DNA of 64,000 bases from Macrostomum lignano (taxonomy: Eukaryota). How positions within the stretch are numbered: position 1 is the first letter of the stretch; each line of letters begins with the position of its first letter. The notes below the pieces were generated by a model. It made no database searches, was not told the origin of the DNA, and saw only the letters and a program-made list of their open reading frames with translations. The stretch is taken from contig NIVC01003924.1 in the NCBI GenBank assembly GCA_002269645.1, forward strand, positions 1 through 64,000. Direction: 5' to 3'. Positions 7,871-59,669 of the stretch are shown piece after piece. Both the position numbers and the translations under genes were made by a program.

Positions 7871-8357
7871 CTGGACGTTTTTCGTTGGAGGGTAGACGTA
7901 AGTAACACAAGTAATACTCATACGAGTAAGCAGTGAAACTGCTATAAACTTCAGTAAACTGGGACAGAGAACTCGAGAATCAATCAAAAACCAAATATAA
8001 ACTGCAAGCAGAGCGGCTTCAGCCGTAAACACGTCTGAATCTCGGACCACAACGAGCCACCATCTCACGCTTTGATTCCATGCGCAGGCGCATTAATTCG
8101 GGGCTTGTGCACGATTGACCTTAATTGACCTAGGGGAGCTGTCGTGCGATTCACATCCAATAGGTCAATAGGGCCAACCAACCACCAAGGCACAGAGAGG
8201 GTACATGTCTGTCAATTAGAAAGTCAGGGTCTCCATTCACCCTGTGTGAGCGTGTGTATGAGTGCGTGCCTGCGTACAGTATTGGCGCGCTTGTATGTTC
8301 TATCTTACTTTACTTTAAATCAAGGCATCAAATAGAAGCACCGCCAGTCTCGCTTAC

Positions 8358-9342
8358 CAACATCAGCATCCGAAGCAGTCATAACTCCCAGCAGAACTGG
8401 CGGCGCGGTGTTCTCCGTCACCTGGAATGCGGTGACGCCCTTGAACTGCGGCGAATTGTCGTTCTCATCGGTGATGCTCACTCGAAGCTGCGCCGTGCCG
8501 GTGAGGGCCGGCTGGCCGGCGTCCGACACCTCAAGCTGAAGCCGGTAAGAGTCTTTCCTCTCCCGGTCGAAGCTTCGTCTAGCTGAGACTTCGCCGGTGA
8601 CGCTGTCGATGTCGAAGAATTCCTCATCTCCGTTGCCAACCAGGCGGTAGGCTAGCCGAGCATTCTCTCCCTCGTCGGCGTCTTCGGCTTTCAAGGTGGT
8701 GACGATGGCACCTGGCCGGTTGTTCTCCATCAGCTGGGCCTCGATGATTCCGGAAGCGTCCTTGCCCAGGAATCGTGGCGCGTTGTCATTCTTGTCCAAT
8801 ATAGCAACTCGAGCGGTGTAGGTGCTGGTGAGGCTGGGCTGCCCGCGGTCCCAACACACCAGCGTGCCTGTGACAACCGAGTCGCGCTCCCTATCGAACG
8901 TCTTGGTCGAGTGGATGGAGAACATGTTTGGCGAGTCGAGCTGGGCAAACTTGACGCTAAGGAGCCGGTTGTTGTGCTGCGATCGAGTCTCGCATTCTAC
9001 CTCGCCGCTCGTCCCGGAGTCCCGGTCGAAGACGCGTACGGAGCCGATCCTCTCTCCGGCTTCGCGTCCCTCCTGAATCTGCAGCTGACCGCTCTCCTCG
9101 TACTCTGGCGCGTTGTCGTTGGCGTCCTCAACGTTCACCTCTACGACGGTCTTGTCCTCGAAGCGGCCGTCGGACACTTTCACCTGCATAAAGAAAACGG
9201 CCTGGGTCTCGTAGTCTAGCGGCTCCTTGATTGACAGGCTGCCATCCGATAGAATGTCAAAGTGGCGACGCGACTCCTCGGGCGAGCTGGCGTCGATGGA
9301 GTACTCGAGCTCGTGGATCAGGTCTTTGTCCCTGGCTTTCAG
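8358..9342 (-). CDS. Protocadherin coding exon 2 (EC3 to start of EC6)
   Basis: LDYE, FDRE, DANDNAP, DKNDNAP and DENDNSP motifs; TTGCAG acceptor and G|GTAAG donor; phases match the flanking exons. Confidence 0.93.
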
Positions 9343-16300: not shown

Positions 16301-16351
16301 ATGATGAAGGAGCAAAATGTTTCTCCAGAAGTTTTAGCACCTCTGACTCAC

Positions 16352-17218
16352 CTTTGCAATCACGTAACCTTTGGCCTTGTCCTCGGACACTCGAACCGAC
16401 GTGCGTTTAGACTCGAACTCCGGACTATTGTCGTTGACATCCTTGATGACCACGCGGACGGTGATGCGGCCCTTCCGACCGTGTCCGTCCTGGGCCACGA
16501 GGTCGAACTGGTAGCTCTGCTGCCTCTCAGCGTCCAGGCCCTTCTTCATCAGCAGGTAGGGGTTGCCGTACTCGTCCACATTCAACTCGAAGGTCTCCAA
16601 GGTCTCCGGGCTGGCGCTGGCCGGGTCGATAGTGTACGTCACCCGGCTGAGTTCCGGCGAGAAGTCGTCGTCCTTGGCGATCGGCAGGTCGACCCGCGGG
16701 TTCGGACAGGCGACCCCCGGCACCAGGCAGACGGACTCGTCCCGCTGGATCTCTTCGTAGGTTGACTGAAACCTCGGCGCGTGGTCGTTGATGTCGCGCA
16801 CGATCAAGGTGAACCTGCCGCGCGCCAACCGCCGGCCCTGCAGCTGCGGCTGCGTCGGCGGTGGCAGCTCGCGGACCACCACAGAGAAGGCGTGCCGGCC
16901 GCCATGCGGGCACTTCGCAGTGGACCGGCAGATCGTCTCCAGATCGATGGACGCCTTCAAGCGAATTTCGCCCGAGGACGAGTCGACGCTCACGTAAGCG
17001 TCGTGCATCTCGAGGGCGTAGGACAGCGGGCCGGCGGAGGTCAGGTGCCGGGACAGGTTGCCAAGGGCAGCGACATTGCCCAGCGCCTGCGGCTGACTTT
17101 CCTCTGATATTTCGATCGCCTTCTCGAAGGTATACAGAGCGGCCACGCCGGAATGCGATGCGACGGTCGTCAAGGCGACCGCGAAGGTCAGAAGCTCGCG
17201 CCAGCTGCTTAGAGGCAT
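16352..17218 (-). CDS. Protocadherin coding exon 1 (signal peptide, EC1-EC2, start of EC3)
   Basis: Signal peptide; DINDHAP and DVNDNSP linkers; LDAE motif; donor AAG|GTGAGT at 16352/16351. Confidence 0.92.
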
Positions 17219-20259: not shown

Positions 20260-20260
<1 letters not shown>

Positions 20261-20363
20261 GTAGTATACGTTTTTTTGACACAAAGCCGATTTCCTTATG
20301 GCGAAATACATAGTAAGTACAGGCCCAAAAAAATGGCAGAGTCCGAAATTTCATGTGCACGCA
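20260..20363 (+). repeat. Left terminal inverted repeat (104 bp)
   Basis: Reverse complement of 34885-34988; first 84 bp identical, 4 mismatches in the inner 20 bp. Confidence 0.97.
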
Positions 20364-20409
20364 GTCTGAAATTCCATGTGCACGCAGTCTGAAATTCCAA
20401 GTGCACGCT
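20341..20409 (+). repeat. Subterminal 23-bp tandem repeat x3 (GTCTGAAATTCCATGTGCACGCA)
   Basis: Three near-identical units, each with a GTGCAC palindrome; the first unit is the inner end of the TIR. Confidence 0.9.
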
Positions 20410-20884
20410 AAATATCTTTTACGCAACGTGATTATTCAGACGAATTGCATATCCACCTGTCCAAAATACAAGTAACCGATTCTAGCAATGGTGACACAAA
20501 CACACTTCAAAGGATTCCATTCAAGACAAATTTACTCCAAAGCTATTCACACATTTCAAGTGTTTTTGAAATATTGAAAACTTGTGAATATTATCACCCT
20601 TTTGAAGAAAGATAGTAAATGATCTATTCTTGAGTGCCTATAGAATTTTTGCACCAACTTGAGCAGATGGTTTACAGATACTATGTCAACAACTGCGTCA
20701 ACATGCTTCTTCTTTATACTATATATATATACGAACACACTGACACAGAAAATATTAAATAACTTAAACCAAGTTTACATTATACTACTTGTTCAACTAT
20801 ACTTACATCTTAAGTGAAATGAAGCGATCACGTCAGCAGGAATTGGCCGAGCGCTATGTTAAACAAGGTAAGATAATCACCTAC

Positions 20885-21115
20885 TCTAGTTCAGTTTTCT
20901 TTTTTAGATTGACTGTTCGCTATAGTTTAGTTTCTAGATTGATTGTTAGTTCGGTTTCTGTTTAGACCGATCCTCTGTTTGTTCAGTCTCTAGATTGATT
21001 TTCTGCTAGTTCGGTTTCTGTTTAGACTAATACTCTGCTAGTTCAGAATTTCTAGATTGATTGTCTGCTAGTTCGGTTTCTGTTTAGACTGATTCTCTGC
21101 TAGTTCAGTTTCTAT
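20885..21115 (+). repeat. Degenerate ~30/60-bp tandem repeat in the element's left arm
   Basis: Recurring CTAGTTCGGTTTCTGTTTAGAC and CTAGTTCAG-TTTCTAGATTGATT units. Confidence 0.75.
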
Positions 21116-21128
21116 ATACATTGTATAC

Positions 21129-21680
21129 ATGCACCTATACCAAATTTCCCTCATCTTATCCATTATTATAGCATTCAAGAATGGTTTCTTCACGCGGCCA
21201 CCTCCAGATCAGTGCAAACGCATTTGCCACGACACCACCACATCCAATTCTGCTGCAAGAGCATCATATTCTACATCTCTCGCCAGAGTAACCTCGATTC
21301 ATGTCGAGAGACAGACAACTGAGCTAGATCGCATTTACACAAGAACTGATGTTATTCAGTCAATTAGGCAGCAATCGAACCCACGACCAACTGACCAACT
21401 GCAGTATGCACCACCACCACCATCACCAACCAGCTACAATGACCCAACAAAGCAAACTTGCAGTAAGCCTACAAGTACCAAACCAACGACAGCAACTGAA
21501 ACACCATCATCATCAATTGCTATTTCTACCCAAGTTCAACCGCTGCTAAACTCGCCAATTATTGTACAGAAGGACATCAAGTCTGTAAAAGTCTCTCAAA
21601 TGAGCACAGGCTTCTACCAAGTAGAATTACCAAAGACCTGTAATACAACTCAAGTATTTGAATATTGGGACCTATCTTAA
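21129..21680 (+). CDS. Hypothetical 183-aa protein with hydrophobic N-terminus and Thr/Ser/Pro-rich middle
   Basis: ATG-TAA ORF; MHLYQISLILSIIIAF is signal-peptide-like; mucin-like central region; no family recognised. Confidence 0.5.
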   Translation: MHLYQISLILSIIIAFKNGFFTRPPPDQCKRICHDTTTSNSAARASYSTSLARVTSIHVERQTTELDRIYTRTDVIQSIRQQSNPRPTDQLQYAPPPPSPTSYNDPTKQTCSKPTSTKPTTATETPSSSIAISTQVQPLLNSPIIVQKDIKSVKVSQMSTGFYQVELPKTCNTTQVFEYWDLS

Positions 21681-21930
21681 AAAGACATTTTTTCTAACTC
21701 TTCATAAAATTTTGCCAGCAATGTGTCCAAGTAATTGCTCTTTTAGTATATATCAAACAAGTCTGTAATCAATAATATAATCTCTATAAATTCATTATTC
21801 TAAAAAATTCTTTCAATTTTATTCGCCATTTATTGAAATTATTTAATTCAATATAAAGTCAATATCTTGTACAGTCATCATTAAACAAAAATTATTAATC
21901 CATGCAAATAATTTTTTTTTCATACGTTTC

Positions 21931-22625
21931 TTTAGCCATGGTCTGGCTTTTGCCTCAACAGTATGATTTAGCTGTGGTCCAGCTTTTGCCTCAACAGTAT
22001 GATTTAGCTGTGGTCCAGCTTTTGCCTCAACAGTTTTTAGCCGTGGTCCGGCTTTTTTGCCTCAGCAGTATGATTTAGCTGTGGTCTAGCTTAAAACTGC
22101 ATCAACAGTGATTTAGCTATAGTCCAGGCTTAACTACCTCAACGATGATTTAGCTATAGTCAAGGCTTAACTGTCTCAACAGTAATTTTAGCTGTTGTCC
22201 AGACTTAACTGCCTCAACAGTGATTTTAGCTGTGGTCCAGGCAACTGTCTCAACAGGGATTTAGCTGTAGTCCGATTAGCTTAACTGTCCAGTTATTTAG
22301 CTGTGAGCCAAGCAGCAGCACCCGTCTCAACAGTGAGAATTAGCTATGGTCAGCTTTACCTCAACTGTGATTTGGCTGCTGTGGTCTAGCATAACTGACT
22401 CAACAGTAATTTTAGCTGTAGTCGTCCAGCTTAACCACCCGTCCAGTTTTATAACCATGGTCCAGCTTAACCACCGTCTCAACGTACAGCGATTTAGTCG
22501 TGGTCCAGCTTAACCGTCTCAACGTACAGTGATTTAGCCATGGGTCTAGTAGCAATTAACCGTATCAATAGTGATTTAGCCGTGGTCCAGCTTAACTGTC
22601 TCAACACAGTAATTTAGCTTAGTCC
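21931..22625 (+). repeat. Degenerate ~36-40-bp tandem array (~18 units) inside the element
   Basis: Consensus approximately GATTTAGCTGTGGTCCAGCTTAACTGTCTCAACAGT, with indels between units. Confidence 0.85.
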
Positions 22626-23329
22626 AAACAGCATTTGTGTGTCAACTGCACTGACTGCATGCGGTTATAGCAGCGGCAGTCATTATAGTCCCAACAAGCT
22701 GCGCGTCGCAGCATGATAGTGTAACTCTATATAGCTTCTGCTCAATATAGGACTGCAAAAGCTGAGTTACAACTATACCTTTTTCTGTTTGAAAAGTAAC
22801 ACTCTATATATAGGTTACTCAAGCAATCTCTTGTCACCGTGCGAGCTAAAAAATTCCAACATGCAAGCAAAACTTTCAATAAATTAATTTCATAGCACCG
22901 CGTGCAGCTTATTTTTACTCTAAAATCCAAGATTGCTAATTTTTCAAGTCGCAAAATATTTTAATTACATTCTACTTGAGAACAAAACCAATCTAATGAA
23001 GCAGCAACCAGCAGTCTTCTTATTAAACGCTTGCCATCGTGTTACTCTTGCAAATTTATAACTAGTGTGCCTAAGATTCATTAATTTTATTGTATAAAAT
23101 ATCAACCTACATTTGCGTAAAATTAGACCTAATCATGCAACCCACCCTAGAAACTTATGCCACCTTTGGCACGCAACAATGTCTTAATCAGCACGCAACA
23201 ATTAAATTTGTTTACTAGTTCACAAACAGCATGCAAAGCTTGCTATAAATACAAGACCCGAAATGGTCAATTTTTCATGAGCTCAATCATTACAGCAAAA
23301 GAAATACTATATTCAATTGCTTGTAAGAC

Positions 23330-24528
23330 ATGGCAGCTTGCATCAAGACGGAGTCAATTGTACGCTCCGACTCGAGTCCGATTTTTTACGTTGGAGAGCA
23401 GTCTACAACCACGACTGGTTCGTCCTGCCAGTTTCGATCTATTGCGTGGAAACCATCAATCGAGTGTACAAAATGGTACCCAATTATATTGCAAACCAAG
23501 GCTCCAATGGAGCTTTTTCGTGGAATCGCAGAAAGGCCAGAGCTCGATCATCCGTCTTGCAGACACGACTCTCGCGACGCAGTAAGTGTCCAATTTCATC
23601 CAGACAGCTGCGATAAGGAACTCTTCCACTCTCTCCGGTGAGCACCATATTAAATTTATACAATTAATTTTAGGAAACTATATTCATAATTTATATAATG
23701 TTTTGCAGTCAAGTCGAAAAAGGTCTATCGGTCAAGTTGAACGAGATTCAAGATGCTCGACCCTTGGCACGACTAACAAAACCAGCTCATCAGCATGCTA
23801 ACGACGTCCTCGAGTTTGTGCCTCAACAATGGCTGGCTATAAAGCCTGCTTACCCTTGTGCCACAATCAGGATCAGCAACGATCATCCACACGGGAAGGA
23901 GGTGTCCATTTCCGATTTCAAAGGTGTCAGCGGTACCTACCAAATGACAGTGCAAGCAACGAGCTTGTATTGTCCAAAAGGCTGCCTCGTCTGGCGCATT
24001 ACATTCGCTGTGCGCTCTCTGACACTCATAGAATCTTCCGACAACATGTTGCAGCGCCTCGACATGTTCAAGGGAGTGCTTGCACACCTACCCGCGACCA
24101 AGTCAGCAATTAGAAGCAGGAGTCCGTCCCCAACATCTACCTGTGAGCAAGAAGAAGCAAATGAACAAAGCCTGCAGAATTCAAGCCAGGTGACACCTGC
24201 CAAGTCACCTGCAAAGCGTCGGTCTACCACCACCGTATCGAAGAAGTCGACTACATCGAATGCAGCGCCAGCCTCTATTGAACCGCCGCCTAAAAAGCAA
24301 GTTCGAAAACGCAGCGGTGCAAAACAGCAAAACAATTCTGCCGAAGCTGGTGCAGATGGCACAGACTGGGTGGAGGCTCCACCAGCAAAGATCTTGGTGA
24401 GTACACCTGCCTCTGGAACCAGGGTAGCGTCCAAGGAGACAGCATTTTTAAAGCGTGCTGCTGCGGACGCTACTACAGCTAGCGTGTCTTCATCGGACGA
24501 CTCGTACAGCAGCTCTGATGATGAGTAA
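23330..24528 (+). CDS. Two-exon gene (23330-23637 + 23709-24528, ~375 aa); putative ssDNA-binding (OB-fold-like) protein
   Basis: A 71-bp AT-rich GTGAG...TTTTGCAG intron joins ORFs 23330-23641 and 23698-24528 in frame (HSLR|QVEKGL). Beta-rich core, then a low-complexity basic linker and acidic tail SSSDDSYSSSDDE. The function is inference. Confidence 0.6.
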
Positions 24529-24738
24529 CAAAATTTTTGACTAATTTTATCCAAGTTTTAACTAACTTATTCCACTATATTTATCAAATTTTTGGCTAGG
24601 GAAATATTATTTTTTAGGGAAAAGCTCAAAACATTTTTTGCTACTCCTTGTACGCTAACCAGGTTTTGTAATTTAATATTAGAATTTACGATAGTATAGT
24701 CATGTTTAACTTTTCTTATTATTTATTTTCCGTTTTAG

Positions 24739-25296
24739 CGACTTGTCCTATTAATAGTTACTGCGAGTCTGAAGCTGCACCCGTTTGAAAAATTTGATTT
24801 AAAGCAGACCAAACAGAAGCTACAGACCAGAAACCGGTTTTGCAAACTATTCCTAAGCCGACCAACAATGCTAAAGACAATTTATTCAAATGCTAAAATC
24901 CAACTTTATCCAGCAGGAAAACTAACTATATATGGCTGTAAATCAAATTCTCAGATAGTCTCAGTTTTACGATTTATCAACGACACTATTAATTGTGTAG
25001 ATTTTGATTCAGTAAAAATTCAGAGCAGTACCTATGTCGGCTTTATTGGTCATCTTTGGCCAAAATTCGGTTTCTCTAGTCTAAAAAGATATGCAGGCTA
25101 CTATTCGAATTATCTGGTTGGATACGATGCAGAAAATTTCCCACAAGCAGTTTCTGTTAGATCAGCATCAAAACCAAGGCTTTTTTGTAACATATTTTTT
25201 TCGAAAAAGTTTGTTATTATGGGCGTTCAAAACACTCATGAATTGAATAATATTCTTAACCATGTCAAGGATTTTTTAATCTCTGTTAATAACTAA
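24739..25296 (+). CDS. Divergent TATA-box-binding protein (TBP)-like protein
   Basis: Two TBP half-repeats: LLIVTASLKL..EKFDLK (cf. NIVSTVNLGCKLDLK), KIQLYPAGKLTIYGCKS (cf. TALIFSSGKMVCTGAKS), VKIQS (cf. FKIQN), YDAENFPQAVSVRSASKPRLFCNIFFSKKFVIMG (cf. [32 protein letters not shown]). The frame is open from 24739 after a TTTTAG acceptor; the first ATG is at 24868. Confidence 0.8.
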   Translation, partial: RLVLLIVTASLKLHPFEKFDLKQTKQKLQTRNRFCKLFLSRPTMLKTIYSNAKIQLYPAGKLTIYGCKSNSQIVSVLRFINDTINCVDFDSVKIQSSTYVGFIGHLWPKFGFSSLKRYAGYYSNYLVGYDAENFPQAVSVRSASKPRLFCNIFFSKKFVIMGVQNTHELNNILNHVKDFLISVNN

Positions 25297-25519
25297 ACTT
25301 AACAAGTAAACAATTGCTGTCAAATCGCAGTTGCGATGCATTCTTTTACAAACATTTTGTCTTTTTTTATTTATTTACCAATTGTTTTCTCTAATAGTAA
25401 ACGTGTCAGCTATACCTATAACTAACCAAATCATCATTTTTCTTACAGCCGCAAATGACAAACCGGATCATCTATTAATATTATGCTCGATACGCTCGTT
25501 GTCGAGCTAGGTGCACACA

Positions 25520-26233
25520 ATGCCGCGTGCACAATGCCAAATCTGCAGAAAAAAGTTCAGTAATCAAGCCGAGCTGCATGCTCACTCGCATGGTGCTTGT
25601 TTTTCACCGCAACGATTACTGACCGGATCGCTGCAAAACCTGATCGAAAACCCACCAGATGGGTGGTCCATCGCTTTGCGCGAGTCAGCTCATCGTGGTC
25701 GGGTAAATTTTGTCGAATTTACTCCCACTCTTGAACAACAAGGCAACAGCTCTGGCGAGTTACTTCCTGGCGAGTTGATTGCGTCTTTAAGAGAACCAAT
25801 ATTTAAAATATTGGAAAAAATTGGCTCACCCAGTTTATTAATAAGAGTCTGCTTTCACTTGAAAGTGACACTATTTCGACCGAAAACAGCAGCAGACGAC
25901 AACGATGGCTCGAGCAGCGAAGAGATCATTTCGGTCTATTTTAATACCAACATTGCGACAATATCATTTGATGAGACGATTGCAAACAGTGACATGCTGT
26001 TATCTCCCGAGGCCTACAATGACTGGTTCGCACGCGTTATTAATCAGTTGTTAATAAAAATTGACAATTTTCAATCTCGAGGTAGTAATTGGCAATATAG
26101 AGCAATCGAGCAGCTAGACTTGATGCTCTGCGTTTATCGCAAAAGCCATGCAAGCACACTGTCAACAAATACGTCCCACGGTGGTGTGGGGGCGGGCGGC
26201 GGCAGTGGTGGTGGTGGCGGCGGTGGTGGTGGT

Positions 26234-26265
<32 letters not shown>

Positions 26266-26596
26266 GCGCGGGGAGTCCGGTCCAGTCCGGTCCGGTCCAG
26301 TCCGGTCCGGTCTGGTTAAGCAGCAATCGTTTAAAGTTCCAGTCTCAATCGGTCGCAAAGCTGGAGCAGTACTGCTTCTAAAGCCGCACAGAGCAGTTTA
26401 AAGCATCAAGACTATTTAAGAGTCTTACACAAGCGACAACTTGTGTTTTCGCGCATACAGTCCATTCGTTCTCGAAAACAGAAAGTTTTTTTTGATGCAA
26501 CAAAGAAAACTTGCACTAAGCTTCTTCGATACGAAGCGATCCTGGACAAGTTCAATTAATTCGCTACCCTTTGGACACTGGCACTTGGCTAATTAA
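25520..26596 (+). pseudogene. polB: Protein-primed family B DNA polymerase, internally deleted (N-terminal region fused out of frame to the extreme C-terminus)
   Basis: N-terminal part: C2H2-like finger CQICRKKFSNQAELHAHSH, then IDNFQSRGSNWQYRAIEQLDL and SFKVPVSIGRKAGAV, typical of Polinton pPolB N-termini. From ~26375 in another frame: KAAQSSLKHQDYLRVL...QSIRSRKQKVF, then after a 1-bp slip in a T8 run LMQQRKLALSFFDTKRSWTSSINSLPFGHW*, the typical pPolB C-terminus. No exonuclease or palm motifs are present. Confidence 0.8.
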
Positions 26597-26888
26597 TTAA
26601 CAATATGCTCTGATCTCTTTTGTTGTACAAAGTAATAGCATGCTATAGAAGACTGTAACCCATCATTAATTTTTTCATTGATCATTATTTACAATAAATA
26701 AATGATACCGGCATTCGTTTAAATTATAATTTTAGCACTTTTTTGTGTTTAATTATTTGAAAAAGTATATTTTTTATAGTTAGATTCTCAAGACTAAGCT
26801 TGTGTTTGTAGTAGACGTAAATGTAGTGCTATCGTTCATGTTTCAAGAAAAAAAACTTTTTTTTAAACTTTCAGCTACAAGAATCGAC

Positions 26889-27371
26889 ATGAATCCCGAG
26901 CAGCAGCAGCAACAACAACTAACTGATCGTAAGCTTTTAGTTGAACGTCTATACGATTCGGCAACGATTCCGACCCGAAAAACTGTCGGGTCGATCGGGT
27001 ATGATCTTTGCGCTGGCGTCGATGGTACCATTCCGGCCTACGAGTCCCGGAGTGTGCGAACCGGACTCAAAATTCGCTTACCGCCTGGTACCTATGGCAG
27101 GATAGCGGGACGTTCCAGCATGGCTCTGCACAGCTTATTTGTTGGCGGTGGCGTAATCGACCCCGACTATACTGGTGAAATCTGTATAGTCTTGTTTAAT
27201 TACAGTCCGGAAGACTTTGAGTACTATGCCGGGCTCAGTATTGCACAACTGGTTCTGGAGCAGGCCGTGCTTGCTTCAGTCTATGTGACTGAAGCAGACA
27301 ATTCGATTCGGATGATTGAGCCGCCGACCAAGCGGCGCGGCTTTGGCGGCTTTGGCAGCACTGGCCAATAA
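26889..27371 (+). CDS. dut: dUTPase (trimeric type)
   Basis: All five motifs: GYDL, GRSSMA, GVIDPDYTGE, IAQL, RGFGGFGSTG. ATG at 26889 follows a TTTCAG acceptor-like site. Confidence 0.95.
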   Translation: MNPEQQQQQQLTDRKLLVERLYDSATIPTRKTVGSIGYDLCAGVDGTIPAYESRSVRTGLKIRLPPGTYGRIAGRSSMALHSLFVGGGVIDPDYTGEICIVLFNYSPEDFEYYAGLSIAQLVLEQAVLASVYVTEADNSIRMIEPPTKRRGFGGFGSTGQ

Positions 27372-27441
27372 GTATAATAATAATAATAAACTGATTTTTT
27401 TCTTTGGTGATTGGTGCACTATGCGAGAGCTTTGTAAATAC

Positions 27442-27450
27442 TATAAGCAA
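27442..27450 (+). promoter_or_regulatory. Putative late-promoter motif TATAAGCAA (one of a recurring set)
   Basis: TATAAGC at 27442, 28605, 29648, 30043, 30879 and 32616; TATAAGT at 32264; TATAAGG at 33953; each lies upstream of a gene start in the structural module. Confidence 0.45.
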
Positions 27451-27462
27451 TTTTAAAAATTT

Positions 27463-27906
27463 ATGCCTAAAATATATGTTGTAAAAATGTCTCCAGCGAA
27501 AGATCGAGGTTTTAAAAAGAAAAAGAAGAGCATTCGTAAAAAGAAGAAATCTATTAGAAAGATTAATAAAAAGCAACAAGGTTATGGTGTCGTAAATTGG
27601 TTAATTAATCATTTACCATTTGAAGCACATTTACCCGGCGGATATCAGTTTTGTGGTCCAGGTACGCAACTGCAAGCTAGGCTAGCAAAAGGACAACGAG
27701 GAATTAATCGGCTTGACAATTTGTGCATGCTTCACGACGTGGCCTATGATAAAAATTCTGACGTGCAAGAGAGGTTAAAAGCTGATAAGCTATTAGAATC
27801 TGGTGCACGAGAGATTGCCCACGATCCGTCTACTGGTTGGAAAGAAAAACTAGCTGCGAAGTTGGTTACCAAGGTTATGCAAGTTAAGCAACGCTTTGGT
27901 GCTTGA
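27463..27906 (+). CDS. Parvovirus VP1u-like phospholipase A2 domain protein (PLA2X-type) with basic N-terminus
   Basis: HLPGGYQFCGPGT Ca-loop, RLDNLCMLHDVAY catalytic HD, and downstream RLKADKLL; Lys/Arg-rich N-terminus. Confidence 0.85.
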   Translation: MPKIYVVKMSPAKDRGFKKKKKSIRKKKKSIRKINKKQQGYGVVNWLINHLPFEAHLPGGYQFCGPGTQLQARLAKGQRGINRLDNLCMLHDVAYDKNSDVQERLKADKLLESGAREIAHDPSTGWKEKLAAKLVTKVMQVKQRFGA

Positions 27907-27908
27907 AA

Positions 27909-28598
27909 ATGCAGCAGCCATACAATATGCAACTAGCTCACGATTCTACATTTATTATTGCTGGACCTTCAAACTCGGGTAAAACTGAATGGACGTTGCG
28001 TTTGTTGACTGAACGAAAAGAATTATTTGATAAAAAACCGTGCCGTCTTGTTTGGTGCCATGGATCAAGTTTGAAACCAGACGATCAACAACGAATTAGA
28101 ACATGCTGGCAAAAAAGCGGTCTTGACCCTATTGTTTTTGTACCCGAATTCACACCACAGATGATTAATCGTTTTTTACCACACGATTTGGTTGTTGTTG
28201 ACGACTTGCAAAGCGAGATTGCTAAGTTGCCAGAATTTACTAGTATGTTTACAAAGCATGCGCATCATATCCCTTTGACTTGTCTGTACCTTTGTCAAGG
28301 TCTTTTTAACAAGTCTGATCCAGAAGCACGCATGCGAAGTTTATCAGCTAGTTATATTTGTCTAACTCGTAGTGTGCGCGATCGAACCACAGTTGAACAT
28401 CTCGGTCGACAAATGTATCCGCGTAATAGTAGGTTTCTAGTGAATGTGTATGAAGACGCAACAAATAACAAACCTTTTTCATATTTATTCATTGACCTGC
28501 GGCAAGTGACACCAGATTTTTTACGATTGAGAACAGGAATATTTTCTGGTGATGAACAAGTTGTCTATACTCGTGAATGTGATGCAAAGTTTGTGTAA
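27909..28598 (+). CDS. DNA-packaging ATPase (A32/FtsK-like)
   Basis: Walker A GPSNSGKT, Walker B VVVDDLQ, plus FTKHAHH, YLFIDLRQ and RLRTGIF motifs typical of Polinton ATPases. Confidence 0.93.
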   Translation: MQQPYNMQLAHDSTFIIAGPSNSGKTEWTLRLLTERKELFDKKPCRLVWCHGSSLKPDDQQRIRTCWQKSGLDPIVFVPEFTPQMINRFLPHDLVVVDDLQSEIAKLPEFTSMFTKHAHHIPLTCLYLCQGLFNKSDPEARMRSLSASYICLTRSVRDRTTVEHLGRQMYPRNSRFLVNVYEDATNNKPFSYLFIDLRQVTPDFLRLRTGIFSGDEQVVYTRECDAKFV

Positions 28599-28655
28599 TA
28601 TTATTATAAGCAAATTATAAACTGTTGTCAATATTAGTTTGTGTTTTATTTCAAA

Positions 28656-29645
28656 ATGAGTTTTTACGTTTTTTTGCCGTCAAACGATATCAGTTACGAA
28701 ACCAACTCGCCTAATGAATTTCGAGTGCGACTAACTGAACCAATAAATTTATTGAACGGATTCTTCGAGGTTGCACTAGTTGAATTACTGTGCCATGGAG
28801 CAATTACGACGCCAAATGCTCATCGTGAGCGTCGATTTGAAGTTCCATATTTTGCGGACATTGACTCAATAATACGATTAAAGAAAAACTATTGGGGTCG
28901 TGTTTGGGCAGAGGCAGACTTGGATGCTTACGTTTCCTGGCAACCGTCTGGTACAGATGAAAAATTTGCCTGGCTTTTACGAAATTCAGGCGAAAAAACT
29001 ATTGGATTAGAACTACCAGTTACATTTATGGACGCTTTCAAATTTGACTCTTGGAAGAAACTTTCTGGACTTGTCTCGGAAAAATTATCAAAACCTGCCG
29101 CTGGTAGTGTACAACCACCGGATGGTTCATACTTGGATTTGATAAAAAGTCTCGACAATACTCTAGCGCTAGTACCTGAGAACTATTATGTTTTTTATTG
29201 TGTTCTATCGCCTGGTGAAGCTATACGACTTGTTTCGCATGGAGACTATCTTCGAAAAACGGAAGGAGAAGTGTACATCAAAGTACACCAATATTGGTTG
29301 AGAAATCGTGTTTGGCGCATTAACAAAACCTACTTGGATGCTGTGCTACCTTCTCCGATGCCTAGTAAAACGGTTTACATGTACTGTTACACAGATATAA
29401 TCGAGTATCAAGCAGTGGGAAGTACATCAGTACCGTTGCTTCGAGTTGTGGAACTCCAACAAAAGAAAAACGGAGAACTTATACGCGATAGCAGTGCATT
29501 GCAAACACCCTACTACTTGAAAACAAATCGACAACAAATTCACGAGATTTCGATTCGACTATCGGACCAGCGCGGAAAACCGTTTAATTTTGATCCGGGA
29601 GCACACGTTGTTGTCGTACTGCATTTTAAACATAGGTCGGACTAA
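28656..29645 (+). CDS. Minor capsid protein (penton/PX-like)
   Basis: N-terminal FYVFLPSN...EFRVRL...FEVALVEL and C-terminal YCYTDIIEYQAVG..VPLLRVV...ISIRLSDQRGKPFNF...VVVLHFK. Confidence 0.85.
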   Translation: MSFYVFLPSNDISYETNSPNEFRVRLTEPINLLNGFFEVALVELLCHGAITTPNAHRERRFEVPYFADIDSIIRLKKNYWGRVWAEADLDAYVSWQPSGTDEKFAWLLRNSGEKTIGLELPVTFMDAFKFDSWKKLSGLVSEKLSKPAAGSVQPPDGSYLDLIKSLDNTLALVPENYYVFYCVLSPGEAIRLVSHGDYLRKTEGEVYIKVHQYWLRNRVWRINKTYLDAVLPSPMPSKTVYMYCYTDIIEYQAVGSTSVPLLRVVELQQKKNGELIRDSSALQTPYYLKTNRQQIHEISIRLSDQRGKPFNFDPGAHVVVVLHFKHRSD

Positions 29646-29701
29646 TTTATAAGCAAAGATTAATTGTGTAATAGAAAATTTTGTGAATTTGTTTTGTAAG
29701 A

Positions 29702-30130
29702 ATGAGCGAACTAACAGAAAAAGGAAAACAAAATGCTCGCTCATTGTGTCAGTGTGCTTTTTTACTACAAATTGTTTATCGGCTAAAGCATCCAAAGCAG
29801 AGAAAAAGTTTTTTACAAACACTTTCAGAGTCGGAGATACGATGTCTAGTAGACTTTCTGTTTAATATTATTAGTGGACGTATTAAAATTAGTAACTGTA
29901 ACAAAAGACGACTTGAGAAGCATCGCAGATATATACGCCAGCTTTTGGAACAGAAGACTCCAATTACTGCAAAAAGGAAAATACTTGTCCAACACGGAGG
30001 ATTTTTACCTTTTTTGGCTCCAATTATTGCCGCTCTACCTGCTATAAGCACTGCGCTTGGGATAACGTCTGGAGTAGTTGGTACCGCCGCGGGAGCAGCG
30101 AATTTAATACGATCAATTCAACGAAAGTAG
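29702..30130 (+). CDS. Small basic virion protein with QHGG-FLP protease-site-like motif and hydrophobic C-terminus
   Basis: LVDFLFNIISGRI...RRLEKHRRYIRQL...QHGGFLPFLAPIIAAL resembles a conserved Polinton small ORF and the adenovirus pX C-terminal segment (GGILPLLIPLIAAA). Confidence 0.7.
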   Translation: MSELTEKGKQNARSLCQCAFLLQIVYRLKHPKQRKSFLQTLSESEIRCLVDFLFNIISGRIKISNCNKRRLEKHRRYIRQLLEQKTPITAKRKILVQHGGFLPFLAPIIAALPAISTALGITSGVVGTAAGAANLIRSIQRK

Positions 30131-30140
30131 TAGGAATATA

Positions 30141-30830
30141 ATGCGAACTAACGAGAGTAGTAGTTTTCAACGAATGTATCTAGTACCTGAATCTGTGTAT
30201 CAATCTGCATGTCAAGGTGCAGAGCAAGGATCGTCACCAACTGCTGAGACACCTCGAAAAACTGAAGTTTTAGACGCACCGCAAGATGCTCTGGCAAAAA
30301 ATATGGTGGAAATGAGAGACCAAATGGATAACTTGGACAAGGAAATGGAAAAGGAGCCAAATTACACAGCTCAATTGAAACGAAGCAGATTGGAAGACAA
30401 ACTTTTAAAATTGCGCAAAGTCTATCGCACTGGAGACGAGGACAATCTGTCACTTGTTCGCAAAGGGACTACTGTAAGAAGTTCATATGCCAGCGAATCA
30501 AGGGAAATTCCTAAAGTTTTTTTACCACGTTTCGAAGCTCTCGCTCAAAACCTATTTTCGGACATGGACAAGAATGCAGAACCAATGCTGGCTAATTTGA
30601 CTGATGCCGAGATACAAGATCTCATGGAATATGTTGTTCGAGACAGACCGCTTAAGCGACACGAGACTCAACCGCCTAGTGGACTAAAAACATTTTTAGA
30701 CTTTCTTCGAAAACGTGGAATCGCAGCAAACCAAATCGGGCGTCATGTACGAAACGAGCTAATGTCTGCTCCAAAAACTGTTGCAAAGGAGGATCTTAGT
30801 CTGTTTGAAAATTATCAAACACTGAATTAA
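30141..30830 (+). CDS. Hypothetical 229-aa Polinton protein
   Basis: Clean ORF in the tightly packed gene row; N-terminal RMYLVP motif, helical and charged. Confidence 0.7.
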   Translation: MRTNESSSFQRMYLVPESVYQSACQGAEQGSSPTAETPRKTEVLDAPQDALAKNMVEMRDQMDNLDKEMEKEPNYTAQLKRSRLEDKLLKLRKVYRTGDEDNLSLVRKGTTVRSSYASESREIPKVFLPRFEALAQNLFSDMDKNAEPMLANLTDAEIQDLMEYVVRDRPLKRHETQPPSGLKTFLDFLRKRGIAANQIGRHVRNELMSAPKTVAKEDLSLFENYQTLN

Positions 30831-30942
30831 GTTGTTTTAAAATTACAGATTACGTTTTAACAAAATTGATTCGAGCACTATAAGCTTTTTAAAAAGGTTA
30901 ATTTTTTGTTTATGAAAAATATATAGTTTAATAAGACAAACC

Positions 30943-31131
30943 ATGTCATCTATCTTCCAAAAACTTTTGATTCGTCTCTGTGAGTTTTTTTGCATAAAAT
31001 CTGAATGTGTGCCGTTTCTGGGAAAGGAGCACAACGAGGATACTGACGGAGATTCGATCGAGGCTTCGTTCTTTTGTTGCAACTGTCAAACGACTAGCAT
31101 CAATCTAACTGATGATGAAGCGAGTGCGTAA
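30943..31131 (+). CDS. Small Cys-rich hypothetical protein (62 aa)
   Basis: ATG ORF preceded by TATAAGC at 30879; its end overlaps the integrase start; CCNC motif. Confidence 0.45.
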   Translation: MSSIFQKLLIRLCEFFCIKSECVPFLGKEHNEDTDGDSIEASFFCCNCQTTSINLTDDEASA

Positions 31132-32272
31132 GGAAATTGAAGAATTTTTGACGGATGCTTTTTTTAACTTGAACAGGCCTACTTCATTTAGTGGTAACAA
31201 GACTATACTTGTTCGTGAAGTACGTAAAAAGTTTCCACAGATTACGAACAAAGTTGCAAAGCGCGAAGTTGATAATTGGGTGCGATCAACAAATGAGCAT
31301 CATTTATTTCGAAAAACACGACGAAACTTTCCAACTCCAAAAATTAGTGTGCCACCAGTTGCAAAGTTTCAGTTTCAAATCGATTTGGCAGATTTACCTC
31401 AATACAAGACGGAAAATCGAGGTTATCGTTACATACTTGTTCTTATCGACTGTTTTACTAGAGTTGTACGACTAAGACCATTGCGTACAAAGAAGCCTTC
31501 AGAAGTTAGTCAAGTATTACTAGAGATTTTTCGAAGTGGTTTTAAGCCTGTTTATTTACAAGGTGATGCTGGTATGGAGTTTCTCGGAAGAGCTACACGT
31601 CAAATGCTGAAACAGGAAGGAGTTCGATTTTTTGTTAGCCAAAGCAATTACAAGGCAAGCATGGCTGAACGATTTATCCGCTCGTTAAAGGAACGTCTAT
31701 TACGATACTTTCGAGCAAAAAATTTACCTCGATGGTTTGACATTTTACCGCAATTGGAAGATAATTTCAACTCTAGTCCTCATCGATCCTTGAGTGGAGA
31801 AACACCAAAACGGGTAGAGACAGACCCGCATTTACAAGGAATTTTGTGGGACAAAATGTTTGCGAAGTCGTACACTAAAAAGAATGAGAATAAATTTAAA
31901 GTTGGTGATTGGGTTAGAATTACACGACGTCGAGGAACATTTGAAAAAGGATACACTACGACTTGGAGTAATTCAAAATATCGCATTCATCGTGTACACT
32001 TGACAGACCCGCCAATGTACGAATTAGTGGACCCTGAAGATGGATTTGAAGTGCTGAAAGGAAGGTTTAACCAAGCGGAACTAATGTTGGTAAACGAGAC
32101 AGATGAAACACCTAATGAAATTGAAAAAGTTATTGAAACTGATCGAGCGAAAAATGGAAGTCGTCTGTATCTAGTAAAATGGAAAGGTATGCCAATCTCA
32201 AGAAGTCAGTGGTTAAACGAAAATGATCTTGACGCAAAGACTGCTAAACTATTTTCTAAAGTGTATAAGTAA
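31112..32272 (+). CDS. int: rve-family (c-int) integrase with C-terminal chromodomain
   Basis: QIDLADL / LIDCFTR / QGDAGMEF / MAERFIRSLK DDE core; C-terminal EIEKVIE...LYLVKWKGMP....WL chromodomain. Confidence 0.95.
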   Translation: MMKRVRKEIEEFLTDAFFNLNRPTSFSGNKTILVREVRKKFPQITNKVAKREVDNWVRSTNEHHLFRKTRRNFPTPKISVPPVAKFQFQIDLADLPQYKTENRGYRYILVLIDCFTRVVRLRPLRTKKPSEVSQVLLEIFRSGFKPVYLQGDAGMEFLGRATRQMLKQEGVRFFVSQSNYKASMAERFIRSLKERLLRYFRAKNLPRWFDILPQLEDNFNSSPHRSLSGETPKRVETDPHLQGILWDKMFAKSYTKKNENKFKVGDWVRITRRRGTFEKGYTTTWSNSKYRIHRVHLTDPPMYELVDPEDGFEVLKGRFNQAELMLVNETDETPNEIEKVIETDRAKNGSRLYLVKWKGMPISRSQWLNENDLDAKTAKLFSKVYK

Positions 32273-32313
32273 CACATGAATTGGGATTGCATGACGAAGA
32301 GAAGACTGTTGAA

Positions 32314-32772
32314 ATGGATCCTATTTTTGCTTTTTATTCTGGTCCGAATAGATCTGCTGAAGGTGGAGGTGGATATGGCATTCCTGTTTACGAAGGTTAC
32401 GGTTTTTTGTCAAATTTGGCGGACAGATTGGTGTATCCTGTACTACGCAACGCAAAGAAAGATTTCTTGGATCGTGGTCTGGAGTATTTGAAAAGTGCGA
32501 CAGCAAAAATTGGTATGGGTCGGAAGCGTCACTTGGACACAGAATCGAGCGAAGAGATGTTTAATACAACTGCAGTTTCGAGACCAAAGCGAAGGAAAAG
32601 AACCAGTGGAGTGGCTATAAGCTTAGGAAAGAAGAAACGGCAAAAGAAACGACGAACAAGACAGTGTGGAAAGGGACGCGTGAACAAAAGAAAACGCAAG
32701 AAGACCGGTGGTATAGGAAAACGTCGAACTGCTACTGCAAGCAAGAAACTTTTTAGTCTGTTTGAAAAGTAG
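32314..32772 (+). CDS. Arg/Lys-rich core-like protein with GxG processing motifs
   Basis: GGGGYG-IPVYEGYG-FLSNLADRLVYPVL followed by a highly basic C-terminal half; directly upstream of the MCP gene. Confidence 0.7.
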   Translation: MDPIFAFYSGPNRSAEGGGGYGIPVYEGYGFLSNLADRLVYPVLRNAKKDFLDRGLEYLKSATAKIGMGRKRHLDTESSEEMFNTTAVSRPKRRKRTSGVAISLGKKKRQKKRRTRQCGKGRVNKRKRKKTGGIGKRRTATASKKLFSLFEK

Positions 32773-32773
32773 C

Positions 32774-34096
32774 ATGAACCATTTGCTTGGACCTGATATT
32801 GCTGCTCTTAAAAGTGAATTGTCGCTATTTGATCAAAGTCCTGTTCAGTTTAGTGTTTTGGATAATCGATATACTAACATTCAACCGCAACATGGTATTA
32901 CAAAAGGATCACCTATCGAATTTGAAGTTGTGCCTGCAGGCGATTTGTATTTGGATCTACAAGAAACTGTGCTCACGGTATGCTTCAGCGTTAGTGATAG
33001 TGAAGGTGAACCTATAGATGCAACGAAAAATTTTGTTTGTTTGAATAATTTGGTTATTGGAACATTGTTTGAGGACGTTCAATTTACTATTGGCGATACT
33101 GTAGTTGAAGGTGGTAGTTTTATGTATCCATACAAGGCTATGCTTCTTACATTACTGGAATATGGACATACAGCTCAGAAGGCTGGTTTACTGCCGTGGG
33201 GGTTTTACAAGGATACAGCTGGTAAAATGAATGCAACAAGTGAAAACGATGGACGAACAAAGAGGCAGGCGCTCATTGCTAACAATAGGCGGTGCACTGT
33301 ATCGGGGCCGTTATTCTTGGATTTGTTTCGTCAGCCTCGGTATCTACTATCAAAGACACCACTACGGATCAAGCTCATACCGGCAAAAAGTAAATTTGTC
33401 CTGAGCGGGTCAACATTAGAAGCTGGTGCGGTTTTAAAAGACTATGAGATCAAGTTTTTGCGTGCAGAACTACGATTGCGGTTTGTTCAACCCTCGCCGA
33501 GTGTTATCAGTGCACATGCTCATGGACTTAAAAGTCACAATGCATTATATCCGCACCGAAGTCTAAGCCTTGGTACGTTTACTATACCCCGAGGATCGTC
33601 TAGCCATACGCATGAAAATTTGTTTCCTAGTGGGGTACCACGGCTTTTATTGATGGCAATCGTAAGCAACAAGGCATTCAATGGAAGCATGGACACAAAT
33701 CCGTTCAACTTTGAGCATGCAAATGTGAGCAGCATTGGTGTGTTTGTGAATGGAGACTCGGTACCATCGCGTCCGCTGCAGACAAACTTTGGAGATGATT
33801 GTGTGACAGAGTATAATTTTTTGCTACAACAGCTTGGAATCTATCTACAGGGACGAGATATTGGATTTAATATGCTGGATTACGCCAATGGTTACTCAAT
33901 TTTTGCATTCAGTCTTGGAAGTGAACCTGGTGTCGGACGGGGAGTGCAACTGTATAAGGAAGGAAATGTAAAACTAGAGTTACGCTTCAATGCTGCAACT
34001 AGTACCGTGTACAACGTCATATTTGGAGGTATATTTGACAAGCAACTGCAACTGACTGAACTTCGCGACATTGTTCCTGGCACAGTATGGAAGTAA
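32774..34096 (+). CDS. Major capsid protein (double jelly-roll, PY/hexon-like)
   Basis: KSELSLFDQSPVQFSV...PIEFEV...YLDLQETVL N-terminus; LDLFRQPRYLL, FNGSMDTNPFNFEH and YANGYSIFAFSL motifs; 440 aa intact. Confidence 0.93.
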   Translation: MNHLLGPDIAALKSELSLFDQSPVQFSVLDNRYTNIQPQHGITKGSPIEFEVVPAGDLYLDLQETVLTVCFSVSDSEGEPIDATKNFVCLNNLVIGTLFEDVQFTIGDTVVEGGSFMYPYKAMLLTLLEYGHTAQKAGLLPWGFYKDTAGKMNATSENDGRTKRQALIANNRRCTVSGPLFLDLFRQPRYLLSKTPLRIKLIPAKSKFVLSGSTLEAGAVLKDYEIKFLRAELRLRFVQPSPSVISAHAHGLKSHNALYPHRSLSLGTFTIPRGSSSHTHENLFPSGVPRLLLMAIVSNKAFNGSMDTNPFNFEHANVSSIGVFVNGDSVPSRPLQTNFGDDCVTEYNFLLQQLGIYLQGRDIGFNMLDYANGYSIFAFSLGSEPGVGRGVQLYKEGNVKLELRFNAATSTVYNVIFGGIFDKQLQLTELRDIVPGTVWK

Positions 34097-34650
34097 TTGA
34101 TTCTATCCTAGATCGTGGTGTAACAGATCGCTTCCTTCGCAATGTTGTATCGAAATTGTGCGCACATTTTTTAAATGTTGTATTTCTTGGTGTTTTTCCT
34201 CAAAACTTTGTTGGTGGACTTAGACGCTTACCTTTAGACGGTAAAGACTATTTTTTTATCGTTAATACTGACGTCTCCAACCTGCCCGGAAAACATTGGG
34301 TATGCGTTTGGGTTTATGGTCATCGAGCAGGTCGCGGTAGCAAACGACTTGGTGAATATTTTGATTCTCTTGGTCTAGTACCATTGCCAAGAATAGCAAA
34401 ATGGCTAGGAAAAGAATGTGGAAATTCGAAAAATTGGTGTTATAGTCGCTTTGCTATCCAAGACCCACAGAGTGGAAGTTGTGGATTTTGGGTAATTTTT
34501 TATATTTTTCATAAGTTGACTACCAGAGGAAACCTAGAGTGTTTTATTCGAAGCGTTTTTAAACGGAATATAATTCGCACTGGTTCGTTTCGATACTTGT
34601 ATGCTAAATTACGCAATTTTGTTTTACGAGTGCTGCCTCAATATTTGTAA
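34087..34650 (+). CDS. Adenain-like (Ulp1-fold) maturation cysteine protease
   Basis: VNTD...GKHWV (His), YFDSLG (Asp), IQDPQSGSCG (Gln, Cys) catalytic residues are intact. Confidence 0.93.
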   Translation: MEVIDSILDRGVTDRFLRNVVSKLCAHFLNVVFLGVFPQNFVGGLRRLPLDGKDYFFIVNTDVSNLPGKHWVCVWVYGHRAGRGSKRLGEYFDSLGLVPLPRIAKWLGKECGNSKNWCYSRFAIQDPQSGSCGFWVIFYIFHKLTTRGNLECFIRSVFKRNIIRTGSFRYLYAKLRNFVLRVLPQYL

Positions 34651-34884
34651 ACTCGCTAATTTGTGCGTCAAATTGTGTTTGTATCTAGTTGAAATATACA
34701 ATACTGCTTGAAAAGAAGAATTTAAATGCGTTAAGTTATACGCGAAATAAGCTTTGTGTCAAATTGAATTTTGGTTGGGCTTGTAATTAGCTGCATTCAT
34801 TGCGGATAGAATTTAGGTGGATAGACAGGTGTTTGCGTAAAAGTGATTCAGCTAATTGGTTAATTCATTGCGTAAAAGCTAGTT

Positions 34885-34988
34885 TGCGTGCACGGCAAAT
34901 TTCAGACTCTGCCATTTTTTTGGGCCTGTACTTACTATGTATTTCGCCATAAGGAAATCGGCTTTGTGTCAAAAAAACGTATACTACT
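34885..34988 (-). repeat. Right terminal inverted repeat (104 bp)
   Basis: TGCGTGCAC...CGTATACTACT, inverted copy of 20260-20363. Confidence 0.97.
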
Positions 34989-59476: not shown

Positions 59477-59669
59477 TGGAGTGAAATGGTTGTTGGAATG
59501 TCGAATAGCAGTCAGCAAGCCAAAGGGTAAGAGACTTACTGAATTCCTAAATAGTTGAGATTTTAAACAATTTTTTGCTGACCTGCAGACCCTTTAGCTA
59601 AGATCACAGTGTGTTGCTACCTGCCCTTCACACCTGTTTTCCAAAGGCGTATACAGTATATGCACTCAC

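Follow-up and report, generated by a model that had tools for sequence, protein, structure and literature searches.

A conserved TBP-like gene in Mavericks of the flatworm Macrostomum lignano: a viral variant of TBP, probably functional, and the candidate late promoter word that goes with it

The window, by which we mean the whole stretch of DNA analysed here (64,000 nucleotides of Macrostomum lignano, contig NIVC01003924.1, forward strand), contains a Maverick/Polinton element at 20260-34988 which, as its flanking repeats indicate, is inserted in a CTAA microsatellite. Between a two-exon gene and a fragment of the polymerase gene pPolB, this element carries an exon for a protein with the TBP fold. 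The features of the element are the following:

20260..34988 (+): Maverick/Polinton of the PLA2-bearing 'clade A', 14.7 kb, non-autonomous pPolB-deletion form, recognised by terminal inverted repeats (TIRs) and gene set
20260..20363 (no strand): left terminal inverted repeat, 104 nt, 96% complementary to the right one, begins AGTAGT
20819..21680 (+): early two-exon gene, intron 20868-21171, GT..AG joint in 4/4 runs
23244..23251 (+): canonical TATA box (TATAAATA), 86 nt before the ATG of the upstream gene, candidate early promoter of the upstream-gene/TBP/pPolB unit
23330..24528 (+): upstream two-exon gene, intron 23638-23708, joint in 3/4 runs, 375 codons, acidic tail
24397..24402 (+): candidate 5' splice donor GTGAGT in phase 0 within the upstream gene, conserved in families
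24716..24738 (+): pyrimidine tract and 3' splice acceptor of the TBP exon, strongest in the interval, 16/20 pyrimidines, phase 0
24739..25296 (+): TBP-like exon covering the whole two-lobed TBP core, assigned by Pfam, PDB matches, AlphaFold2, Foldseek and dN/dS
25440..25478 (+): spliced leader (SL) acceptor (joint 25448/25449, from an RNA contig) and 7-codon remnant at the position of the relatives' deoxynucleoside kinase (dNK)
25520..26401 (+): zinc-finger N-terminal piece of pPolB; about 3.16 kb of the gene missing after 26395
26838..27371 (+): dUTPase, PF00692 E 1.5e-29
27463..27906 (+): phospholipase A2-like (PLA2) virion protein, PF08398 E 3.4e-9; TATAAGCA at 27442
27909..28598 (+): packaging ATPase (Walker A visible), named from sequence and gene order, with weak P-loop matches only
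28656..29645 (+): putative minor capsid protein, which we take it to be from order and size, no Pfam match; TATAAGCA at 28605
29702..30130 (+): adenovirus pX-like core protein, PF05829 E 2.3e-6; TATAAGCA at 29648
30141..30830 (+): conserved ORF, presumably PZ-like, from gene order; TATAAGCA at 30043
31112..32272 (+): retroviral-type integrase with chromodomain, PF00665 and PF00385; TATAAGCT at 30879
32314..32772 (+): basic core-like protein, from sequence; TATAAGTA at 32264
32774..34096 (+): putative major capsid protein, 440 aa, assumed to be such from order and size, no Pfam match; TATAAGCT at 32616
34087..34650 (+): adenovirus-type cysteine protease, PF00770 E 0.038, below cut-off; TATAAGGA at 33953
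34885..34988 (no strand): right terminal inverted repeat, 104 nt, 96% complementary to the left one

The 5' part of the element is ordered spliced early gene, spliced upstream gene, TBP exon, pPolB fragment and dUTPase, and the 3' part PLA2, ATPase, minor capsid, pX-like, PZ-like, integrase, core protein, major capsid and protease. Of the Maverick genes, integrase, ATPase, protease and capsids are present, the integrase by Pfam, the protease below the cut-off, and the ATPase and capsids by motif, order and size. The hallmark AGT ends are accompanied by a 6-bp target duplication (CTAACT on both sides), which is weak evidence inside a CTAA microsatellite. Cadherin exons of the host, together with a class C GPCR, flank the insertion (8320-9414, 16334-17218, 59617-62272 (-)). 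A TATATATA run lies about 100 nt upstream of the early gene, exon 2 of which has no Pfam match, and degenerate tandem repeats of 36-40 nt lie between the early genes (21931-22618 in the window), where contigs from 4/4 runs cover them. The upstream gene is syntenic across all clade-A families; its product has no Pfam or PDB match, and an ESM Atlas assignment to DUF2738/Pox_I3 at 0.86-0.89 serves only as a lead that it might be like a single-stranded DNA-binding (SSB) protein. In a relative, a deoxynucleoside kinase (PF01712) was found at the position of the remnant.

Only the first ~290 codons of pPolB are left in the copy in the window, so that an intact protein-primed polymerase is absent. 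The same 3.16-kb deletion was found in 27/27 near-identical short copies examined, whereas the region is kept in 3 longer siblings that are ~96% identical, the long form matching PF03175. The element in the window is therefore a recently spread non-autonomous form that has retained the TBP exon. The first-pass annotation, made from the sequence alone, had called it a Polinton; TIRs, integrase and the capsid, ATPase and protease genes uphold this name, but the full core set that it listed is not there, pPolB being mostly deleted here. The family qualifies as Maverick/Polinton even though its copy in the window is non-autonomous. Clade-A pPolB (L066:2509-6747, L027:85-3900) has a zinc finger at its N-terminus and contains, as an insertion, a domain of endonuclease VII (HNH-type).

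The frame at 24739-25296 (+) is open from stop to stop and comprises 185 codons and a TAA. The first-pass annotation had described a 186-codon frame; the open frame stands, but it has one codon less before its stop and no start codon. The same annotation had aligned the frame by eye with both halves of the TBP saddle and had proposed profile and structure searches, which now bear the alignment out. The exon matches PF00352 in two stretches with 31 bits, above the curated cut-off of 22.9 (E 2.2e-7), and in a PDB sequence search at E<=10 the matches were TBP chains or TBP-containing constructs in 7/7 cases. AlphaFold2, given an alignment with host TBP/TRF2 rows, modelled a two-lobed saddle with a pLDDT of 94.5, and a control with six Maverick rows only and no cellular rows gave the same elements at 92.0. 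Both models match solved TBPs in Foldseek (E 7e-10 and 4e-9, TM 0.73-0.76). The two-repeat saddle fold of the TBP family is hence present in the Maverick exon at an identity to cellular TBP of ~20%. Among viral models the best structural matches are TBP-like proteins of Nucleocytoviricota (E 6e-10), and the best ESM Atlas clusters (0.95-0.96) have 50-75% viral members, which we take as a lead.

Residues were called in an alignment with host TBP that included 10 Maverick rows, 6 of them clade-A proteins. The exon contains the motifs LYPAGK (Y57), ENFP (F134-P135) and NIFFS (F153). Of the four intercalating phenylalanines of canonical TBP, F3 and F4 are kept (F134, followed by P135, and F153), F2 is a tyrosine (Y57) and F1 is lost (Ser40 in the alignment), just as had been read by eye at the outset, when both Phe equivalents were noted in the C-terminal half, a Tyr in place of one in the N-terminal half, and no match for the other. 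Within clade A, F3, the following Pro and F4 are kept in 6/6 proteins, and F134, P135 and F153 together with Y57-P58-G60 are invariant in 6/6; Tyr-Pro at F2 is found in 9/10 Maverick rows. Both base-contacting Asn residues of TBP are lost, being Leu4 and Ser96 in the protein of the window and Leu/Gln and Ser/Thr in clade A, and the Val of the second NMV motif is replaced by Thr in 10/10 Maverick rows. Judged by its residues, with two of four Phe kept, the protein is TBP-like rather than a canonical TBP.

The basic helix-2 patch, which in TBP has a role with TFIIA and other factors, is absent from the clade-A proteins. The acidic C-terminal stirrup of TFIIB type is present (D130 and E132); both positions are acidic in 10/10 Maverick rows, and E132 is kept in 10/10. 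In TBP, the C-terminal Phe pair sits at the 5' end of the TATA box, an orientation that follows because the Pro after F3 favours T at TATA position 1. This preference of the Pro is given in the available part of PMC12529657, as is the finding that acidic residues of yeast TBP ('E184 and E188' as printed) are critical for TFIIB, and the accessible text of PMC10005294 places the TBP-induced DNA kinks at steps 1-2 and 7-8. With the C-terminal F3-Pro and F4 kept and the N-terminal residues altered, the lobe that would read the start of the TATA box is intact and the lobe that would read its last bases is changed. A complex prediction of the TBP exon with partial host TFIIB scored 0.00, the alignment being unused and the TFIIB piece lacking its first helices, and it speaks neither for nor against this contact.

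The opening TAG of the TBP-like frame is a 3' splice acceptor. In 6/6 clade-A families it is conserved, in phase 0 and followed by an Arg codon, and by its signals the frame reads as an exon without an ATG. Within the upstream gene, GTRAGY is found at the homologous K-x-L|V-S position in 6/6 families, and 0/8 other Val-Ser pairs are so coded (p about 0.016 from the Val third position alone). Joined to the TBP exon, this donor would yield a fusion of 517 codons (computed length). The 7 residues before the donor resemble the clade-B/C N-terminus (rank 1-22 of 230-277 windows per family), and neither a conserved Met nor an internal acceptor was found in the upstream gene before the donor. We give a 517-aa fusion of the upstream gene with the TBP exon at this predicted junction roughly an even chance. 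A stand-alone TBP of 186 aa, without fusion, whose first Met is provided by the AUG of the host spliced leader, seems to us slightly less probable than that; it is at odds with the conserved phase-0 donor, with the resemblance of the residues before it to the clade-B/C N-terminus and with the lack of a conserved Met or internal acceptor there. It is favoured by the spliced leader that joins element RNA at 25449 in 1/8 runs (X7), where a 23-nt loose end at 25448 matches the 35-nt Macrostomum leader (PMC8629364), and by the fact that the flatworm leader ends in AUG and can start translation (available text of PMC9851317 and PMC12582326). The start of pPolB in 10 clade-A elements fits as well: 7 have an acceptor without ATG, exactly at the Met position in 5 and four codons further up in 2, while 2 have an ATG and 1 has neither. 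Clades B and C, moreover, make the TBP-like protein stand-alone. Both the fused and the leader-started forms may be made.

RNA was compared for 8 of 24 runs, all of them as assembled contigs. The element is transcribed and spliced, with two cis introns in the neighbouring genes shown by RNA-like contigs (4/4 and 3/4 runs). A joint from 24396 to 24739 or a leader at 24739 is absent from the contigs of the 8 runs, which cannot prove absence, and in two runs from a single study the contigs start at 24749/24750 with nothing covered further upstream, from which no conclusion on the 5' end follows. The cover of the TBP exon in 8/8 runs is not counted, since this region itself guided the choice of the runs, which may also contain DNA. 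A longer fused form was not among 7,998 scored candidates, a weak negative in a collection from which 6/6 proteins of the window are absent, and the literature searched held no report of spliced-leader use on Maverick transcripts. An internal start at Met44 (142 aa) is unlikely, as it would leave out codons 1-43, which are under constraint and make up the central strand (pLDDT 90-95). As observations on neighbouring genes, the pPolB acceptor that stands in place of an ATG in several relatives might let the leader AUG start the polymerase; in one clade-A family (L033:7440-8846 (-)) the TBP exon and the deoxynucleoside kinase form one continuous frame of 460 codons, counted from the acceptor, and in two others it overlaps this gene out of frame.

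A genome search with the TBP-like protein returned 84 matches; 25 of them, the copy in the window included, agree completely over residues 44-185, and 23 of these contain the whole 185-codon frame; another 3 reach 99% identity. The counts may be inflated by haplotypes because host TBP was found three times. Stops interrupt the frame in some old Maverick copies. The order upstream gene, TBP, dNK, pPolB is common to six clade-A families (the dNK being a remnant in the family of the window), whose TBP-like proteins are 39-46% identical to that of the window. Clade B has another gene order and a TBP-like ORF with its own ATG in many copies. Clades C and D were chosen by ATPase alone and each have a TBP-like gene, that of clade C with a Pfam E of 6e-19 and that of clade D weak (own-profile E 2.5e-7, no Pfam match). 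The gene is thus present in 4/4 Maverick clades sampled in the Macrostomum genome, and it is under purifying selection. By the Nei-Gojobori method, dN/dS was 0.14 between the frame in the window and a longer sibling (6 synonymous and 3 non-synonymous changes). Of the pairs that the six clade-A families allow, only one was unsaturated; it gave 0.15, and 0.24 over codons 1-43. The clade-B genes gave 0.15-0.33.

Several further observations concern the other clades. In clades B and C (L050:7005-8082, L085:6631-7720) the TBP-like ORF overlaps a preceding ORF of 280-290 aa by ~330-390 nt in another frame; this ORF has no Pfam match and is exonuclease-like by eye. A second transcription cofactor of host type is encoded in clade B/C elements (e.g. 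L050:130-855) by a PC4/Sub1-like gene (PF02229, with an E of 8e-5 below the cut-off), which is preceded by TATATAAG in two clade-B copies. The clade D element (L081-L082, G000:C175) measures ~10.4 kb, has TIRs of 814 nt and no pPolB match, and shows an identical GGGTATATAAGCACC word before its first two genes.

In a 30-row tree, with a single canonical TBP and long branches, a branch with 95/92 support splits the Maverick rows from host TBP and 13 TRF2-type rows. The trees of the TBP-like protein and of the ATPase have the splits A, B+C and C272+C2529 in common. A single origin of the Maverick TBP-like genes is neither supported nor rejected (p-AU 0.35, with two prokaryotic paralogues as outgroup); the common Thr at the NMV Val (10/10) and Tyr-Pro at F2 (9/10) hint at one old acquisition. 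Outside Macrostomum the searches gave little. Word-based protein searches found only Macrostomum-named or Logan clade-B relatives (5 matches) and cellular TRF2-type proteins, and IMG/VR scans for Maverick TBP relatives had 0/19 and 0/18 confirmed. Three loci among 599 stretches of a metagenome scan were rejected, their gene context being that of prokaryotic TBP paralogues and not of Mavericks. These contigs (L105-L107) bear prokaryotic genes next to N-terminally odd TBP paralogues, two of which are preceded by repeat-like text in several frames.

The sense strand of the element in the window has 8 TATAAG sites, none of them in 20260-27400, and they lie 21-233 nt before 8/9 genes from PLA2 to protease, the ATPase being the exception. 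The enrichment is local, since over the whole 64-kb window TATAAG is not enriched (18 vs 24.7 expected). The word was chosen after inspecting the window and was then surveyed in 9 elements of 5 clade-A families, among which, related as they are, the motif is shared by descent. In the late module TATAAGC occurs 3-6 times in sense and 0 times in antisense, vs 0.10-0.47 expected, and in each of the 9 elements 0/100 shuffles reach the count. TATAAGC(AA) precedes structural genes on the sense strand in 9/9 clade-A elements examined. It stands before the minor capsid gene in 9/9 elements (at -43 to -54), the major capsid gene in 8/8, pX in 8/9, integrase in 8/9, PLA2 in 7/9, core in 6/8, protease in 5/8, dUTPase in 4/9, PZ in 2/9 and ATPase in 1/9, and in 0/34 upstream windows of early genes. 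At 39 distinct sites, the bases after TATAAG are C (30), A (29) and A (31). The site TATAAGGA before the protease may reflect a coding constraint (Tyr-Lys). Before the first exon of the upstream gene, by comparison, a canonical TATAWAW lies at about -69 to -108 in 8/8 clade-A elements examined, a count without shuffle control; in two families the early-gene box reads TATATAAGG, which contains TATAAG. The late word TATAAGCA differs from TATAAAAG in the half that the altered lobe would read. A non-canonical TATA word confined to structural genes was found in clade A only. In clades B and C, where genes are tightly packed, no per-gene TATAAGC was seen despite the TBP-like gene (three hexamers listed).

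Fold, conservation, selection and motif placement are observed, as are the splice signals and the splicing of neighbouring genes; the Maverick gene is a conserved and probably functional viral variant of TBP, matched by a candidate late promoter. We favour, with moderate confidence, the interpretation that the protein is the element's own late-gene factor, which reads TATAAGCA at structural genes and recruits host Pol II. Host TBP would start the early unit from the canonical TATA box, and the TBP exon would be spliced either to the upstream-gene donor (517-aa fusion) or to the host spliced leader, with the terminal AUG as start. As the viral protein accumulates, it would bind TATAAGCA, the intact C-terminal lobe (F134, P135, F153) reading the TATA start and the altered N-terminal lobe (F1 lost, F2 Tyr, Asn lost) accepting GC in place of the AA preferred by host TBP. 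Contact with TFIIB would then be made by the acidic stirrup (D130, E132), and Pol II would transcribe the structural genes. DNA binding, contact with TFIIB, timing and the 5' junction are what we infer in this scheme. A late-transcription factor had been suggested by the first-pass annotation, and the suggestion is strengthened because a clade-wide non-canonical TATA word precedes structural genes in clade A; since clades B and C have the gene without a per-gene word, it keeps its conditional form.

Host TBP might itself read TATAAGC, and the viral protein, by binding TFIIB or canonical promoters, would then dampen host or early viral transcription in the manner of a decoy or repressor. This would suit a protein that keeps the acidic stirrup and has lost much of the DNA face and the basic helix-2 patch, and also the presence of the gene in clades B and C without a per-gene motif. 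We take TATA variants numbered G(-26) and C(-25) to be changes of the kind in TATAAG. According to PDB titles, wild-type TBP was crystallised on single G(-26) and C(-25) variants, and host TBP may therefore read TATAAG. A pure decoy, however, would have no need of F134, P135, F153 and Y57-P58-G60, all invariant in 6/6 clade-A proteins, and the clean early/late split of TATA words in clade A is simplest with two different reading factors; we regard this explanation as unlikely. Even less probable, in our judgement, is a role of the TBP-fold domain in genome replication or packaging, in which it would bind single-stranded or terminal DNA, perhaps fused to the upstream protein. The position of the clade-A exon within the replication block, between an SSB-like gene and dNK/pPolB, is compatible with such a role, as are the conserved in-frame donor, which could fuse the two, and the Giardia TBP, which is similarly altered and prefers single-stranded DNA (PMC12209930). 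Yet the TFIIB-type glutamate is kept in 10/10 Maverick rows, in clades B and C the ORF stands alone, opens with an ATG and lies at a distance from the polymerase start, in elements that bear a PC4-like gene as well, and the late motif would be left unexplained.

That the gene is a mere passenger, taken recently from host TBP or already dead, could be imagined for a non-autonomous element, all the more as the frame is broken by stops in some old copies. It is excluded by dN/dS, by frames that stay open under purifying selection even between families whose synonymous sites are saturated, and by a position outside host TBP and TRF2, and with an identity to cellular TBP of only ~20% and the gene in 4/4 clades it is scarcely credible. 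The first-pass annotation had asked for a tree with host TBP and TRF2 and for syntenic homologues in other Mavericks, and had named as counter-evidence a missing TBP fold, a frame that is not conserved or a dead capture. The Maverick genes fall outside both cellular groups (95/92 branch), six clade-A families keep the order and 4/4 clades have the gene; the fold was found, and the gene is conserved, syntenic and not a dead capture.

Returning to the late-gene factor, we would also offer a wider and rather speculative picture, which we consider improbable as a whole: animal Mavericks would run an early/late programme with a private basal factor, alternative splicing would fuse a viral ssDNA-binding protein to a re-specified TBP, TATAAGCA promoters would fire only on replicating genomes, and the host leader AUG would act as start codon. 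If true, a virus of 15-19 kb would possess a counterpart of the herpesvirus late complex reduced to one protein. The Macrostomum host allows RNAi and transgenesis, and the TBP-like protein and its word offer a concrete protein-DNA pair to test in this flatworm. The control of Maverick capsid genes is described as open, and particles as unobserved, in the accessible part of PMC8097293. A conserved viral TBP and a late promoter word would, if true, mean that Mavericks have a regulated virus-like cycle and are not inert transposons with capsid relics; they would also give a natural example of TBP specificity rewired lobe by lobe, and the smallest known counterpart of the TBP-mimic strategy of herpesviruses.

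Among known systems, cellular and archaeal TBP (PF00352; PDB 7egb_P, 2z8u, 1ytb) share with the Maverick protein the saddle, the C-terminal Phe-Pro and Phe and the acidic stirrup. Unlike them, the Maverick protein is encoded by a mobile element at ~20% identity, has lost F1 and both Asn, has Tyr at F2, and in clade A is without the basic helix-2 patch. TRF2/TBPL1 (host copy on C350) is likewise a divergent TBP paralogue with altered intercalating residues, but in host TRF2 the only one of these positions still occupied by Phe is F4, against F3-Pro and F4 in the Maverick protein, and the two do not group in the tree. The TBP-like proteins of Nucleocytoviricota (ASFV B263R type, Heterosigma virus TBP), the best viral structural matches, have an identity of 8-17%. 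Nucleocytoviricota encode their own RNA polymerase, and Mavericks do not. Adintoviruses, Mavericks and Polintons (Starrett et al. 2021, PMC8502044) share TIRs, pPolB, integrase, ATPase, protease, capsids and PLA2 with the element. The first-pass annotation was not aware of TBP as standard Polinton cargo. This holds but for one label that predates it: the available text of PMC8502044 and its preprint has 'TBP' in the Fig. 5 legend on a related virus, in a section on non-animal datasets and without analysis, and one supplement of that paper had no TBP or Macrostomum entry. The main texts of the other Polinton papers examined had no mention of TBP or TATA, and their supplements could list such a gene. 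A promoter word or clade-wide TBP conservation in Mavericks was not found in the searchable literature.

UL87 and BcRF1 are TBP mimics of beta/gammaherpesviruses. By analogy, the TATT system of these viruses is the one that the Maverick system would most work like. In the KSHV ORF24 type, a viral TBP-like domain is paired with the non-canonical TATA word TATTWAA at late structural genes and with host Pol II (PMC12529657, available part). The Maverick protein lies outside the ORF24 family: ORF24, in the same text, is a large protein with four Phe, no TFIIB acidic residues and direct Pol II binding through its N-terminus, and it needs five more viral factors in a six-factor complex, whereas the Maverick protein is a 185-aa exon with the acids kept and two Phe and a Tyr, with no ORF24-like partners evident.
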